64,000 bases of DNA from Candidatus Berkelbacteria bacterium CG10_big_fil_rev_8_21_14_0_10_43_13 (GTDB lineage: Bacteria; Patescibacteriota; UBA1384; XYA2-FULL-43-10; 1-14-0-10-43-13): positions 34,240 to 98,239 of the forward strand of contig PEZW01000018.1 of NCBI GenBank assembly GCA_002773985.1. Direction: 5' to 3'. Below, piece after piece: positions 28,626 through 31,386 of this stretch. Positions within the stretch are counted from its first letter, which is position 1, and each line of letters opens with the position of its first letter. Below the pieces are notes generated by a model. The model did no database searches. It was not told where the DNA came from and saw only the letters and a program-made list of their open reading frames with translations. The position numbers and the translations under genes are program-made.

Positions 28626-29219
28626 ATGAACATCAAAAAACTAACACCTCAAAATTTTGAACAGGTTGTGACTGAAGCCGTAAATATTATCAAATCTGGC
28701 GGTCTTGTCATCGCACCTTTTGATACTGTCTATGGCATCATTTGCGATCCGAAAAATGACGAGGCTGTCAAAAAGATTTTTGATCTGAAGAAAAGACCAC
28801 TCGACAAAACTATTGGCCTGGCCGTCACTTCAATTCCAGCACTAGAATTGATTGCGGAAAACACTCATCCAGATTTTATAAAATCTCATATTTTCGGTCC
28901 GTATACATTTATATTGAAATCAAAGAAAAATAATGGCATTTCCAAATATTGCCAAAAAGAGGGGACTGTCGCAGTTAGAATTCCAAATTCGGAGCTAATT
29001 CTGACAATTGCTAAAAAGTCAGATTATATCCTCGCTCAAACCTCAGCCAATCTCACCGGCAAGCCAACATCTGCCTCGGTCGAAGAAATAACTGCCCAAT
29101 TTGAACCAAAAGTGTTGGACGCAATCGGATTAATTATCGACGGCGGCAATATCAAAAACCCCTCTCCATCACAAATTTTCGATCTAACAGGCGACAAGCC
29201 GATTGAGATTGCGAGATAA
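28626..29219 (+). CDS. tsaC: L-threonylcarbamoyladenylate synthase (TsaC/YrdC family). Start taken at MNIKK.
   Basis: YrdC fold signature (GGLVIAPFDTVYGIICD...LKKRPLDKTIGLAV). The ORF-track start at 28590 lies inside an 18-bp inverted repeat, so the internal Met is preferred. Confidence 0.8.
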   Translation: MNIKKLTPQNFEQVVTEAVNIIKSGGLVIAPFDTVYGIICDPKNDEAVKKIFDLKKRPLDKTIGLAVTSIPALELIAENTHPDFIKSHIFGPYTFILKSKKNNGISKYCQKEGTVAVRIPNSELILTIAKKSDYILAQTSANLTGKPTSASVEEITAQFEPKVLDAIGLIIDGGNIKNPSPSQIFDLTGDKPIEIAR

Positions 29220-29245
29220 GTTATTTTCTGCTATTATTTGGTCAT

Positions 29246-29288
29246 GCCGAAGTGCCTGCCTGCCGGCAGGCAGGGCGGAATTGGTATA
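29246..29288 (+). pseudogene. 5' part of a second tRNA-Leu(CAA)-like gene (acceptor plus D arm), interrupted by a 20-bp perfect palindrome (29255-29274)
   Basis: With the palindrome removed, the sequence is GCCGAAGTGGCGGAATTGGTATA, against GCCGCGGTGGCGGAATTGGTATA in the intact tRNA-Leu (21/23 identical). Confidence 0.5.
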
Positions 29289-29299
29289 ACCTATTATAT

Positions 29300-29539
29300 A
29301 TGTATTTTGTCTATGTATTAAAAAGTACAAAAAGGAATTATCATTATATTGGTATTAGCAATAATTTATCTCGAAGAATAAATCAACACAACAAGGGTTA
29401 CAACAAAACAACTAAGCCTTACACACCTTTTAAATTAATTTACAGTGAAAAGTACCCTGACCGTGTCTCAGCCAGAACTAGAGAAAAACAATTAAAAAGT
29501 GGTTGCGGTCGTGAATTTATTCGAAAAATAGATATTTAA
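29300..29539 (+). CDS. GIY-YIG nuclease-domain protein (about 80 aa, UPF0213/Slx1-like)
   Basis: MYFVYVLKSTKRNYHYIGISNNLSRRINQHN matches the GIY-(10-11)-YIG motif plus the conserved Arg and Asn. The ORF-track upstream extension (from 29252) runs through the palindrome and is unlikely to be coding. Confidence 0.7.
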   Translation: MYFVYVLKSTKRNYHYIGISNNLSRRINQHNKGYNKTTKPYTPFKLIYSEKYPDRVSARTREKQLKSGCGREFIRKIDI

Positions 29540-29569
29540 ATAATTTGATTAGCGTCTTGTTCATTTTGG

Positions 29570-29655
29570 GCCGCGGTGGCGGAATTGGTATACGCGTACG
29601 ACTCAAAATCGTATTCCCTCAAGGAATGTGGGTTCGATTCCCACCCGCGGCACCA
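29570..29655 (+). tRNA. tRNA-Leu (anticodon CAA), long variable arm, CCA encoded
   Basis: Hand fold: acceptor GCCGCGG/CCGCGGC, anticodon stem TACGA/TCGTA with loop CUCAAAA, variable hairpin TTCC-CTCA-AGGAA, T arm GTGGG-TTCGATT-CCCAC. Confidence 0.9.
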
Positions 29656-29670
29656 AATGAATAAGAATCG

Positions 29671-29769
29671 CACGACCTGTCTGCCGACAGGCAGGCTCAA
29701 AATCGTGTGGCCTCGTGCCTTATGGGTCTGCCTGTCGGTAGACAGGTTCAAATCCCACCTTCGGTACCA
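29671..29769 (+). pseudogene. 3' part of the split tRNA-Leu(CAA)-like gene (anticodon arm, variable arm, T arm, acceptor 3', CCA), carrying two 20-bp palindrome insertions (29676-29695 and 29727-29746)
   Basis: With the palindromes removed, the sequence is CACGA-CTCAAAA-TCGTG ... TGGG-TTCAAAT-CCCA-CCTTCGGT-A-CCA. The acceptor 3' strand CTTCGGT is complementary to the 5' fragment GCCGAAG, including compensatory changes relative to the intact gene. Confidence 0.5.
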
Positions 29770-29770
29770 A

Positions 29771-29800
29771 AAAAAACAGCTTAATTGCTGTTTTTTATTT
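29771..29800 (+). terminator. Intrinsic terminator (AACAGC-ttaatt-GCTGTT followed by a T-run)
   Basis: Hairpin 29775-29792 followed by TTTTTTATTT. Confidence 0.6.
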
Positions 29801-29864
29801 ATCCAATTTTGTTGATGGGCGGAAGGTTTCTGGCACACGGCCCGAAACCTTCCGCCCCGACACT

Positions 29865-30230
29865 TCAGGGCGACTCCTTGTCGCCCTGCAACTTCTTTGT
29901 CTCCTTCGAGGCCTGTTGTTCCGCGACGATCTTCATTCGCGGGCTATCCTTCACAGCCTCAGCCTCCGCAGCCTGTTGCTCAGCAACGATCCGCATCCGC
30001 AGACTATCGCTGAGATCAGCCGCATTACTCTCCTCACCGGCACGTTGTTCGGCGACGACCTCCGCCGCCGACATGTTCGGCTCCGGATCGGGCCGAACCG
30101 ACTCGCTTGGCTGCACCGCCACAGACTGTGCAGGTTTGTAGCCGTAGTCGTCGACTTTGTGGCAACCGACGAGAATTGAAAACCCGAGGGATGCCACCAC
30201 AATTGCCAACACATCGGAAAACTCTTCCAC
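29865..30230 (-). CDS. Putative lipoprotein with internal repeats, GC-rich
   Basis: Signal peptide with lipobox (SILVGC) and a tandem R/K-M-R/K-IVAEQQA motif. The GC content is clearly above the local background. Confidence 0.5.
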   Translation of the reverse strand: MEEFSDVLAIVVASLGFSILVGCHKVDDYGYKPAQSVAVQPSESVRPDPEPNMSAAEVVAEQRAGEESNAADLSDSLRMRIVAEQQAAEAEAVKDSPRMKIVAEQQASKETKKLQGDKESP

Positions 30231-30296
30231 TGTATGACTCCCTTTCCCTTGACATGTTTATAACATTTTTGACTGTGTGTGTCAACATTTTTGGGA

Positions 30297-30490
30297 GTAA
30301 CTGCTCACCCATCTTTTCATTTCGACCCCGTGAGCTCTGTCGAACGGTCGGAGAAATCTGACACGAAGTGTCATTCCCTCGGCTAGCTCGGGACAGGCTC
30401 TGAGCTTGTCGAAGGATCTTTTCAAGAAACAAGATCTCTCCACCCTCGACGAACCGAGGAGTCGAGATGACAATATGAAGTGAGTTAGTA
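30297..30490. repeat. MITE-like palindromic element (GTAACTGCTCA terminal repeats, GTCATTCC subterminal)
   Basis: Begins GTAACTGCTCACCC and ends GTGAGTTAGTAATTAC. It shares its termini and the GTCATTCCCTCGGC core with the copies at 42539, 48641 and 50041. Confidence 0.4.
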
Positions 30491-30633
30491 ATTACTTTTC
30501 TCTGAGAACACAAAAAAAACCGGCATCCGAATGGACAACCGATTACATTATTTTCTTTTTAATTTTGCTGTGTCGGCGAGGGTCCCCCGAAGGGTACCCC
30601 CGCCGACGAGCTTTCATCACGACGCCACTCCTG

Positions 30634-31089
30634 TTATTTCTCCGCCGCCACGGGGCGGAGAGAGGCGGCCATCTCCTTGGCCGCTTCCTCCGCTGTCGGG
30701 ACCCTCTGCACCAGAGGTGACGAAGGGTCGACCGCCGAATCAACCGGCAACAGCAAGCTGTCACCGGAGGACAGCTGGCCGTTGCTCGACGACCGCCTGT
30801 TAATGCGGTCGAGCTCAGCCTCCCAGTGCCGCTTGTCAGCGCCTTTCGGCGCAAACAAAGTGGCGATCGAGTGATACGTGTCGCCGTCCTGGACGGCGTA
30901 GTACCATCGCGTCGGCTCAGCAACAGCGGCACGGACCGCTACCGCACGCCGATTGCCATCATCGACGGCGCGGGTGATGAACGCCGCCGCGATGGCAACG
31001 ATCACGATCACTAGTACCAGCCACGCCGCAACCTCTTTCAAGGTCATCGGCTCGGCCGGTCGATCAAACGCTTTCACGTTTTTGCCCAT
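30634..31089 (-). CDS. LysM-domain membrane protein (start probably MGKNVK; the ORF track extends to 31164), GC-rich
   Basis: TM helix (WLVLVIVIVAIAAAFI) followed by a LysM-like block YYAVQDGDTYHSIATLF...GQLSSGDSLLLP. Confidence 0.55.
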   Translation of the reverse strand: MGKNVKAFDRPAEPMTLKEVAAWLVLVIVIVAIAAAFITRAVDDGNRRAVAVRAAVAEPTRWYYAVQDGDTYHSIATLFAPKGADKRHWEAELDRINRRSSSNGQLSSGDSLLLPVDSAVDPSSPLVQRVPTAEEAAKEMAASLRPVAAEK

Positions 31090-31386
31090 CTTCAGGGCTC
31101 CTTTTTCGGGCAGGATTGGCAGAATTGCCAAAATTATACTAACAGATTTGATAGTATTTGTCAATATATAAGCACAAAATTATGTTCAATTTAGTATTTT
31201 GTCAGACCCAAACTGTATAAACACCGGAATTCGCGCCATTTTCTAGTCGAAAGCTTTAGTCTTTTAGCCATCTTTTCAGCTTTATCTCAGCCAATATGGT
31301 ATAATATCAACGTAGATCCAAGTTCACAGTACCGAGTACCGAGCGCCCCCTAATACGTTATACGAGATACCTAATACGAAATTTGT

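Follow-up and report, generated by a model that had tools for sequence, protein, structure and literature searches.

How a tRNA-Leu(CAA) gene came to lie in two halves on either side of a nuclease gene and a second, complete tRNA-Leu(CAA), and why the halves are themselves broken by short palindromes, is the question raised by one locus in the 64,000-nt stretch of Candidatus Berkelbacteria DNA analyzed here (the window). The split resident gene is called type A and the complete gene type B. The features of the locus are listed below.

29209 to 29237, forward strand: promoter-like site (TTGCGA, 17 nt, TATTAT, with TG before the -10; from a consensus scan only)
29246 to 29288, forward strand: type A tRNA-Leu(CAA) 5′ fragment (nucleotides 1-9 GCCGAAGTG, then P1, then the D-stem 5′ strand and D loop GCGGAATTGGTATA)
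29255 to 29274, no strand assigned: palindrome P1, CCTGCCTGCCGGCAGGCAGG, perfect, between tRNA nucleotides 9 and 10
29289 to 29668, forward strand: inserted cassette of 380 nt (spacer, GIY-YIG gene, spacer, intact tRNA-Leu(CAA), 13-nt trailer)
29300 to 29539, forward strand: GIY-YIG nuclease gene, 79 amino acids, catalytic core only (PF01541)
29555 to 29569, forward strand: left arm of an inverted repeat (5′ leader), pairing with the trailer of the intact tRNA
29570 to 29655, forward strand: intact type B tRNA-Leu(CAA), CCA included
29653 to 29666, forward strand: right arm of the inverted repeat (CCA and trailer)
29669 to 29769, forward strand: type A tRNA-Leu(CAA) 3′ fragment, containing P2 and P3
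29676 to 29695, no strand assigned: palindrome P2, CCTGTCTGCCGACAGGCAGG, two transitions, at the anticodon-stem 5′ strand/loop boundary (31/32)
29727 to 29746, no strand assigned: palindrome P3, TCTGCCTGTCGGTAGACAGG, four transitions, at the T-stem 5′ strand/T loop boundary (53/54)
29771 to 29796, forward strand: terminator-like hairpin, AAAAAACAGC / GCTGTTTTTT, 10 bp, 100% complementary, directly after the resident CCA

Organization of the interrupted gene and its insert

Type A was reconstructed from 29246-29288 and 29669-29769 minus the three 20-nt palindromes. After removal of the palindromes and fusion of 29288 to 29669, ARAGORN with its default thresholds called an 84-nt tRNA-Leu(CAA), which scored 53.4 bits against a tRNA-Leu HMM, compared with 65.4 bits for the intact gene; with the palindromes left in, the Rfam tRNA model (RF00005) gave no match to the halves, even at E ≤ 10. 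An earlier note on this DNA, whose coordinates and sequences all proved correct, had read the halves in just this way; for the 3′ half the tRNA identity stands, and the start moves from 29671 to 29669 (CGCACGA). This half supplies the D-stem 3′ strand, the anticodon arm (CAA), the variable arm, the T arm, the acceptor 3′ strand and CCA. The reconstructed acceptor is GCCGAAG, with strands that are still complementary. Compensatory differences between types A and B, already pointed out for the acceptor (pairs 5-68 and 6-67), extend to the anticodon-stem pair 27-43 and the variable arm.

The cassette interrupts the resident gene precisely where the D loop meets the 3′ strand of the D stem, and the gene is short of 2 nt at the junction (D-stem/position-26 region) by comparison with the uninterrupted gene of a related Berkelbacteria contig, L216, a single case. 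Both genes said to lie between the halves were recovered, type B by ARAGORN and RF00005 (62.3 bits) and the nuclease by PF01541 (64.6 bits against a cut-off of 22.6, E = 1.1e-17, residues 1-67). Catalytic residues Y5, Y16, R26 and E62 are invariant, and H30 nearly so, among 39 homologues, and the same catalytic residues do not vary in the 10 closest. Among solved structures, the nearest relatives are the UPF0213 proteins 1ywl and 1zg2, which are single-domain proteins, followed by the nuclease domain of SLX1. No DNA-binding module of the I-TevI or Seg type was found, the catalytic domain filling residues 1-67 of 79, and the protein is therefore not a classical sequence-specific homing endonuclease on its own. 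PHROGs yielded no family match and a plasmid search no relatives; relatives in an annotated phage collection are only 33-41% identical, PADLOC returned marginal matches only, and NCBIfam only a sub-threshold match to a group-I-intron endonuclease. No intron RNA family was detected in the split-tRNA locus.

Judged from its sequence, type B is the working tRNA copy of the locus. The inverted repeat around it (arms 29555-29576 and 29645-29666) is 86% complementary, and the cassette ends 2 nt beyond the right arm, at 29668; the repeat is kept in a sister lineage, L011, where one A-to-G change gives a G.T pair. The promoter-like site is presumed to be that of the resident tRNA-Leu and is a candidate driver of the whole unit now; a homologous stretch precedes the uninterrupted tRNA in L216. 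The hairpin behind the resident CCA probably serves as a terminator, and L216 has one at the equivalent place, 3′ of its tRNA 3′ fragment. A transcript of the whole unit would then start at the former tRNA promoter and stop at the former terminator.

Each palindrome consists of two abutted 10-nt inverted arms, starting with CCTG and ending with CAGG, and the DNA hairpin of P1 has a predicted energy of -8 kcal/mol. Across the 64 kb, the family pattern was matched without mismatch by P1-P3, each on both strands, and with 3 mismatches at one other site; shuffled sequence gave a mean of 0.3 matches. L011, otherwise near-identical in this stretch, carries a second unit directly after P1, and this one extra 20-nt unit identifies the palindromes as real insertions, as the earlier note had held; an invasion of the whole genome is not borne out, as all three copies in the 64 kb are confined to about 140 nt of tRNA remnant. 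The reverse complement of P3 is 1 nt off the second unit of L011. Relative to L216, the P1-P3 insertions are clean, with no target duplication. A sequencing artifact was rejected: 10 contigs from several studies carry the identical locus, and the palindrome also has transition variants and subfamilies common to several loci.

Empty sites and recent exchange in related Berkelbacteria

The uninterrupted tRNA-Leu sought among relatives was found in L216 and L214, where type A is intact at the syntenic site after Sua5, an empty site. The L216 gene matches the reconstructed halves at 82 of 84 bases: the 5′ fragment minus P1 is identical to L216 3118-3140, and the 3′ fragment carries two substitutions, one giving an A49.C65 mismatch. 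In a third lineage (L219), and also in L220, type B stands alone at this locus, which lacks the nuclease gene, the palindromes and any tRNA-Leu fragments. The cassette is polymorphic, being present in the window and L011 and absent from the Sua5-tRNA-Leu site in L216, L214, L219 and L220. At the level of sequence, these comparisons show that the resident type A gene behind Sua5 was broken at the boundary of the D loop with the 3′ strand of the D stem, and that the 380-nt insert brought the nuclease gene together with a different, apparently functional tRNA-Leu(CAA), type B. They support the earlier view of a nuclease-bearing insertion into a once-functional tRNA-Leu with a replacement tRNA.

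The window and L011 share 93-100% identity over 29200-29500, compared with 67-92% in the flanking host genes, and their nuclease genes differ by a pS of 0.05 and a pN of 0.006. As the 5′ fragment and the nuclease gene are far closer than the flanking genes, the cassette moved recently; read from this divergence, the two were exchanged between lineages recently.

Since L011 has deleted most of the 3′ half, the type A halves are a former tRNA gene and now decaying pseudogene fragments. That the split gene might still work, as a permuted or split tRNA whose inserts are removed from the transcript in the manner of archaeal split and multi-intron tRNAs, is highly improbable. The halves do lie on one strand between the promoter-like site and the terminator-like hairpin, their acceptor strands still pair, and the inserts are at or near loop positions; nevertheless, besides the deletion in L011, the 2 nt of the D-stem/position-26 region have gone and the A49.C65 mismatch has been gained relative to L216. 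Moreover, the palindromes are fully paired hairpins with no bulge-helix-bulge at the insert boundaries, unlike the archaeal cases, an intact isoacceptor lies inside the insert, and the fragments in other genomes are plainly truncated.

It is also extremely improbable that the duplicated tRNA pieces are attL/attR-type scars of an integrase-inserted island, namely the GC-rich stretch at 29800-31200. Synteny between the window and L011 stops just past the tRNA locus, this adjoining 1.4 kb has 56% GC against about 42% elsewhere, and L216 and L214 have, at the T loop, a non-coding insert of their own that is accompanied by a second copy of the tRNA 3′ end, all of which would suit such an island. 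However, the nuclease gene is the only long ORF between the fragments, leaving no room for an integrase, and the fragments are complementary halves around 380 nt rather than direct repeats of a tRNA 3′ end. In L216, the uninterrupted tRNA is likewise followed by the start of the GC-rich stretch, so the stretch appears older than the cassette, and its arrival with the cassette was rejected. Pfam returned nothing for its two ORFs.

We consider the locus very probably a single instance of a selfish cassette that has a minimal GIY-YIG nuclease at its center and resides in tRNA-Leu genes. The predicted nuclease would break tRNA-Leu DNA, and repair would copy or capture the cassette; because a working tRNA is always left, the insertion would be tolerated. 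The 2-nt loss at the junction fits the 2-nt 3′ overhangs left by the GIY-YIG enzyme SegB of phage T4 (PMC2330249).

The nuclease clade and the palindrome family across phyla

Related nuclease loci number 493 in GTDB species genomes, and the clade counts were taken from 80 of them, one set of species genomes. The hosts are Bacteroidota, Ignavibacteriota and Patescibacteria, and the cassette is chromosomal. In 72 of the 80 loci the nuclease gene lies within 200 nt of a same-strand tRNA-Leu, and 15 have tandem nuclease copies; a search for flanking tRNA-Leu fragments detected them in 32 of the 80 at E ≤ 0.01 and, with the threshold relaxed to E ≤ 10, in 62 of 87 sequences. The lineage-specific acceptor of the adjacent full tRNA is also that of the fragment for 23 of 29 5′ fragments and 25 of 29 3′ fragments, which points to local partial duplication or gene conversion at most loci, probably not an imported tRNA. 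The window falls in the minority class, whose fragment acceptor is unlike that of the adjacent full tRNA; its nested, diverged tRNA arrangement recurs in L143, L165 and L193. Neither the association of the clade with tRNA-Leu nor the palindrome was described in the literature searched, largely outside subscription journals and with the exact 20-mer included, which is not proof of novelty.

The palindrome was found in 49 of the 80 nuclease loci. Most copies at these loci (58 of 64) lie within tRNA-Leu-like flanks, and 50 of the 58 follow one of five tRNA HMM positions: 15 (20 copies), 32 (10), 39 (9), 64 (6) and 23 (5). These sites correspond to the interior of the D loop, the D-loop/D-stem junction, both edges of the anticodon loop and the T-stem/T-loop junction, and are thus mostly helix-loop junctions. 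The P2 variant recurs at the P2 site in L143, shifted by one base (32/33) in L152, and at the D-loop/D-stem junction in L148 and L194, while the P3 site is filled by other palindrome copies in L139, L183, L195, L199, L208 and L047. The palindromes are therefore a cross-phylum family tightly tied to tRNA fragments adjoining GIY-YIG genes, and this family at fixed cloverleaf positions replaces the RPE- or HIP-like behavior suggested in the earlier note. Nested and tandem copies exist, and in L091 the two 10-nt arms may carry cargo that includes whole tRNA genes. Present across phyla, inserted in either orientation and without target duplication, the palindrome has the make-up of a hairpin mini-element: exact flanking repeats of at least 5 nt accompanied none of 122 metagenome copies and 3 of 42 viral copies.

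It is possible, though doubtful, that the palindromes are an independent dispersed mini-repeat of the REP or MITE kind, without a link to the nuclease, which has pooled in a dispensable remnant of a compact genome. Exact copies of the 20-mer were found in at least 120 metagenome contigs and at least 35 viral stretches, mostly intergenic and with no clade GIY-YIG gene nearby; a clade nuclease gene was on the same contig in 10 of 120 metagenome loci, tRNA-like flanks accompanied 10 of 127 metagenome copies (about 8%), and viral contigs of 60-68% GC have the palindrome and no clade nuclease gene. Since most palindromes elsewhere are far from a clade nuclease, the palindrome may move by an unrelated mechanism. 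Against this, tolerance alone predicts scatter, whereas copies concentrate at the five positions, with only 6 of 64 elsewhere in 233 kb of nuclease loci, spacers and 3′ UTRs being spared; all three window copies share the short remnant, and a GIY-YIG gene lies within 100 nt of the palindrome in 6 of 120 metagenome loci, where a rough estimate gives about 0.8 expected. Excising the palindrome from the 120 metagenome loci yielded no extra ARAGORN tRNA, and the tRNA pieces there are therefore true fragments.

The palindromes might instead be kept for a benefit to the cassette, such as immunity of the target site, a block to recombination that would lose the nuclease, or hairpins that stabilize or insulate mRNA ends. 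They occur only in non-functional tRNA copies, form stable hairpins and lie roughly 25-50 nt before the start codon (5′ fragments) or 20-50 nt past the stop (3′ fragments), and in L258 and L260 one variant provides the TAG stop of the nuclease ORF. We nonetheless regard this as unlikely: position relative to the ORF varies, with P2 and P3 of the window beyond the intact tRNA, the palindrome is common where the nuclease gene is absent, and selection leaves one 20-mer in different phyla unexplained.

The reading that we prefer, with low confidence, is that palindrome sites are places where the nuclease nicks or cuts hairpin-prone tRNA DNA: a structure-sensing enzyme would open these sites and the palindrome would be captured there. 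Tentatively, the 20-nt palindrome and the 79-aa nuclease may even form one undescribed system, in which cutting at helix-loop boundaries spreads a tRNA-replacing cassette among bacterial phyla and inserts, with no target duplication, a universal hairpin able to carry cargo. A general preference for the tips of larger hairpins was not convincing (flanking stems of at least 6 bp in 3.3% of copies against 1.8% of controls), and the claim of structural targeting is therefore restricted to tRNA contexts.

Comparison with known systems

Rickettsia palindromic elements are about 100-150 bp long and typically lie in frame within protein genes, whereas the palindrome described here lies in tRNA-derived or intergenic DNA and, at 20 nt, has a length not divisible by 3. 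Closer in size are cyanobacterial small dispersed repeats and yeast mitochondrial GC clusters, which are very small palindromic mobile repeats. REPINs (PMC3116915) and the REP superfamilies (PMC3733652) are likewise short palindromic dispersed repeats, and the palindrome resembles all of these as a GC-rich unit of 20-40 nt that is dispersed, mostly non-coding and sometimes nested or tandem. REP superfamilies carry GTAG or CGTC end tags (PMC3733652), whereas the palindrome has neither and ends in CCTG/CAGG; it keeps one sequence across phyla instead of differing between species, and at nuclease loci it occupies fixed tRNA-derived positions. It also differs from a MITE in consisting solely of its two abutted arms, P1-P3 having no target-site duplication.

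SegB promotes segmental amplification of the T4 tRNA region (PMC13096335), and the likeness to the present locus lies in a GIY-YIG gene among or next to tRNA genes and in preferential inheritance of the nuclease gene with the flanking tRNA region; the counterparts here are the tandem fragment-plus-nuclease arrays and the 2-nt junction loss. However, the present protein is core only and UPF0213/SLX1-related, without a PHROG and distant from its phage relatives, and the chromosomal cassette lies within the tRNA gene, leaving tRNA fragments behind, and has a conserved palindrome associated with it. Elements that integrate at tRNA genes and bring a tRNA segment to restore them similarly split the gene, keep a working tRNA and leave a partial copy, but here there is no integrase, the unit is 0.3-0.4 kb, a complete second tRNA is carried in the window, and breakpoints fall in the D, anticodon or T arms instead of a fixed 3′ att core. 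In the same phylum, Patescibacteria, tRNA genes harbor group I introns at anticodon-loop and T-arm positions (PMC13011429), which are also positions of some of the present insertions; the inserts here are 20 nt or a protein-plus-tRNA cassette, and the interrupted copy is a decaying pseudogene rather than a spliced gene.

If correct, our reading would place the cassette among the smallest gene-drive-like elements known, at about 0.3 kb and with a nuclease lacking a DNA-binding domain. Its target gene is essential and universally conserved, and the cassette would persist there because every insertion leaves or supplies a working copy; this would explain its crossing of phyla. It would also account for a class of tRNA-Leu pseudogene fragments and of small ORFs annotated, without context, as "GIY-YIG nuclease family protein", and the predicted nuclease could serve as a structure-specific tool. 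That Patescibacteria, Bacteroidota and phage contigs share the palindrome unchanged makes it worth asking how 20 nt of DNA moves and chooses structured targets, and the palindrome offers a simple marker for finding such loci. In L144, five tandem tRNA-Leu calls by ARAGORN were partly spurious, four of them being 5′-truncated copies that carry the palindrome.

A resident tRNA-Leu gene interrupted by a cassette of nuclease and tRNA

The earlier note described the locus as a split tRNA-Leu with a nuclease ORF and 20-nt palindromes (P1 to P3), and rechecking against the sequence agreed with this description. The source is a Candidatus Berkelbacteria bacterium (Patescibacteria/CPR), and the nuclease shares 100% identity with a protein from assembly CG10_big_fil_rev_8_21_14_0_10_43_13.

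Features of the locus and adjacent DNA (window coordinates)
29209-29237, promoter-like site, putatively the old tRNA promoter
29255-29274, palindrome P1, perfect
29300-29539, GIY-YIG nuclease ORF, 79 aa (PF01541, E=1.1e-17)
29676-29695, palindrome P2
29727-29746, palindrome P3
29771-29796, terminator-like hairpin, putatively the old tRNA terminator
29817-29857, 18-bp inverted repeat
29865-30230, minus strand, 121-aa ORF without a Pfam match
29903-29940 and 29963-30000, 60-nt direct repeat
30634-31164, minus strand, 176-aa ORF without a Pfam match

ARAGORN and Rfam identified one intact tRNA-Leu(CAA) at 29570-29655 (type B), and the halves of the split gene (type A), with the palindromes left in, matched no Rfam tRNA model even at E ≤ 10. 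Excising the palindromes and fusing 29288 to 29669 produced a sequence that ARAGORN, run with its defaults, called as an 84-nt tRNA-Leu(CAA); a tRNA-Leu HMM gave this reconstructed gene 53.4 bits, compared with 65.4 bits for the intact gene. The differences between the two copies in the acceptor stem, anticodon stem and variable arm are all fully compensated, so both were functioning tRNAs at the time of divergence, which supports the earlier proposal that the split copy was once functional.

For locus comparison, the regions around homologues of Sua5/TsaC, the gene upstream of the locus, were fetched. The uninterrupted tRNA-Leu sought in related genomes is present at the same site, directly after Sua5, in the relatives L216 (a Berkelbacteria contig; Sua5 63% identical) and L214 (65%), as a tRNA-Leu(CAA) that shares 82 of 84 positions with the reconstructed split gene. 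The lengths differ only by 2 nt (CG), which the window lacks precisely at the insertion point. In L219 and L220 (Sua5 60%), the other tRNA type stands alone at this place and equals the window's intact copy at 83 of 86 positions, while the nuclease gene, tRNA-Leu fragment and palindrome are all absent from the locus after Sua5. These comparisons back the proposed nuclease-bearing insertion of a second tRNA into a tRNA gene, and indicate that a 380-nt cassette (29289-29668) with the type B tRNA interrupted type A, the resident gene, at the border of the D loop with the 3′ strand of the D stem (23/24). The sister lineage L011 (Sua5 84%) carries the same cassette and has lost most of the 3′ fragment, which marks the split gene as a pseudogene in decay.

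Exchange of the cassette between lineages, evidently recent, is apparent on alignment with L011. In 60-nt bins, host genes show 67-92% identity. Identity rises to 93-100% across the block at 29200-29500, which spans the promoter region and 5′ fragment together with most of the nuclease gene, and synonymous divergence of the nuclease gene is only 0.05. Within the block, an extra 20-nt palindrome immediately follows P1 in L011, so a single unit was recently gained or lost. One metagenome contig (L004, 1186-1501) matches the window exactly through Sua5, the 5′ fragment and the nuclease gene, and diverges from 3 bases past the nuclease stop codon into unrelated sequence not in the window; this contig could be an assembly chimera, or else a deletion variant without the tRNA.

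The cassette's intact tRNA has a leader/trailer inverted repeat of 12-15 bp (29555-29569 and 29653-29666), kept in L011 apart from a single change, which produces a G.T pair. Inverted repeats likewise flank nested tRNAs in other contigs (L047, L091, L165); the flanks in L091 resemble two halves of the 20-nt palindrome, and in L047 one tRNA-Ala is nested in the anticodon loop of a second tRNA-Ala, and no nuclease gene separates the two. Downstream, 29800-31200 is 56% GC, against ~42% around it. The first ~55 nt of this stretch have a homologue after the L216 tRNA locus, there preceding a minus-strand ORF, and L011 has different DNA in place of the stretch, whose start appears older than the cassette. 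After the uninterrupted type A tRNA, L216 (3204-3420) and L214 (3160-3360) contain a separate GC-rich, palindrome-rich non-coding insert of ~180 and ~200 nt, respectively, followed by a duplicated tRNA 3′ end, aagtCCCACCTTCGGTAC, and in L216 by a terminator-like hairpin. It has the look of a second insertion at this tRNA, of a type different from the cassette.

The nuclease clade and its tRNA-Leu neighbours

The nuclease comprises the catalytic core only, and its nearest solved structures are UPF0213 proteins (1ywl, 1zg2), followed by the structure-specific nuclease SLX1. A profile scan of GTDB species genomes yielded 493 related loci; the best 80 (53-69% identical), from Bacteroidota, Ignavibacteriota, Patescibacteria and two MAGs labelled Gammaproteobacteria, were analysed. 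Among these best 80 of 493, a same-strand tRNA-Leu lies within 200 nt of the nuclease gene in 72 (anticodons CAA 52, TAA 13, GAG 4, TAG 2, CAG 1), downstream in 39 loci and upstream in 33. The tRNA-Leu HMM detected further partial tRNA-Leu copies beside the nuclease gene, arranged either as 5′ fragment, gene and full tRNA or as full tRNA, gene and 3′ fragment, and 15 of the 80 loci have more than one nuclease copy, often in tandem fragment-plus-gene units. Fragment and neighbouring full tRNA have the same lineage-specific acceptor sequence in 23 of 29 and 25 of 29 cases, and most fragments are therefore likely to be local partial duplications. The window belongs with L143, L165 and L193 to a minority class whose fragments are unlike the adjacent intact tRNA; in all of these except L165, the nuclease gene and intact tRNA have fragments on either side. 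On other contigs, related nuclease genes adjoin fragments of tRNA-Asn, -Lys, -Ser and -Arg.

A Cyclobacteriaceae chromosome (L144, 1736-2590) contains a nuclease gene, an intact tRNA-Leu(CAA) and then four tandem 192-nt units, each a 5′-truncated tRNA-Leu with a D-loop palindrome plus the downstream terminator region. In L258 (380-411) and L260 (1733-1764), the nuclease ORF extends into a tRNA T-stem fragment, its TAG stop supplied by the palindrome variant CCTGTCTACCGACAGGTAGA.

Placement and distribution of the palindrome

P1 to P3 are the sole 0-mismatch matches to the family pattern in the 64-kb window, with one more at 3 mismatches; shuffled sequence gave a mean of 0.3 matches. Compared with L216, all three are clean insertions, with target bases neither duplicated nor lost. 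Within the best 80 nuclease loci, 49 contain a total of 64 palindrome-like copies, 58 of them with tRNA-Leu-like flanks, and placement is stereotyped, at few positions. Copies were inserted after HMM position 15 within the D loop (20), 32 and 39 at the two edges of the anticodon loop (10 and 9), 64 at the T-stem/T-loop junction (6), 23 at the D-loop/D-stem junction (5), 14 (3) and 12 (2), with three more after 70, 72 and 79. P2 and P3 occupy two recurrent sites and the cassette itself a third (23/24). The same variants recur across phyla, both orientations are found at one site, and copies are nested within each other or in tandem. Some have 6-88 nt of other sequence between their two 10-nt arms, which in L091 includes a whole tRNA-Val.

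The exact 20-mer was found in at least 120 metagenome contigs and 35 viral-contig stretches. Among the matches listed, only ~8% of the copies in the metagenome sample have recognisable tRNA flanks and only 10 of 120 metagenome loci have this clade's nuclease gene on the same contig; the gene is absent from the palindrome-bearing viral contigs of 60-68% GC. The palindrome-nuclease link is therefore, in these loci, a strong association rather than a proven dependence. Capture of the palindrome at nuclease breaks seems the most likely origin, though our confidence in it is low; alternatively, the palindrome may target its sites independently, or may be selected for a role in immunity or mRNA stability. 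Nuclease and palindrome may together make up one mobile system of a new kind, which we consider possible but less likely than not.

Outside tRNA contexts, a minority of palindromes have flanking direct repeats of 7-14 nt or lie within short tandem-repeat-like sequence (~7% of metagenome loci and ~21% of viral contigs, versus ~0.5% of controls; for example L223 1660, L229 8396, L239 3391, L015 429 and L053 196). In the high-GC viral contigs L245 (2239-2330) and L222 (8616), a palindrome lies at the variable-region/T-stem boundary of tRNA-Met; ARAGORN still calls a 92-nt tRNA in L245, so a hairpin there might be accommodated in the way a long variable arm is. In L156 (1760-1851), L175 (1760-1852), and L142 and L154 (1764-1817), the palindrome's 10-nt arms surround 33-73 nt of unrelated AT-rich sequence shortly downstream of the nuclease gene, in L156 directly preceding a tRNA 3′ fragment; they may represent longer forms within this hairpin family.

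Possible mechanism and relation to known systems

What the locus records is insertion of a nuclease-plus-tRNA cassette into a resident tRNA-Leu, then decay of the remnants. In the mechanism that we propose, the nuclease would break tRNA-Leu DNA, and repair would copy or capture the cassette; the unit would probably be transcribed from the old promoter-like site (29209-29237) to the old terminator-like hairpin (29771-29796). The nuclease has no DNA-binding domain and is similar to SLX1, so it would more plausibly recognise DNA by its structure than by a long sequence.

Nearest among known systems are free-standing GIY-YIG homing endonucleases in phage tRNA clusters (SegB), integrative elements targeting tRNA genes, and very small palindromic repeats (REP/REPIN and similar). 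None of them combines a core-only nuclease, cross-phylum residence inside tRNA-Leu genes and a conserved 20-nt hairpin at fixed cloverleaf positions. No published description of the clade's tRNA-Leu association or of the palindrome was found in the literature open to searching, and a recent survey of tRNA insertions in Patescibacteria reported group I introns, with palindromes, hairpins, pseudogenes and GIY-YIG unmentioned (PMC13011429). REP superfamilies carry GTAG or CGTC tags (PMC3733652), whereas the palindrome here is without them. Two features recall T4 SegB: the tandem arrays are similar to its reported segmental amplification (PMC13096335), and the loss of 2 nt at the junction is consistent with the 2-nt 3′ overhangs that it is reported to leave (PMC2330249).
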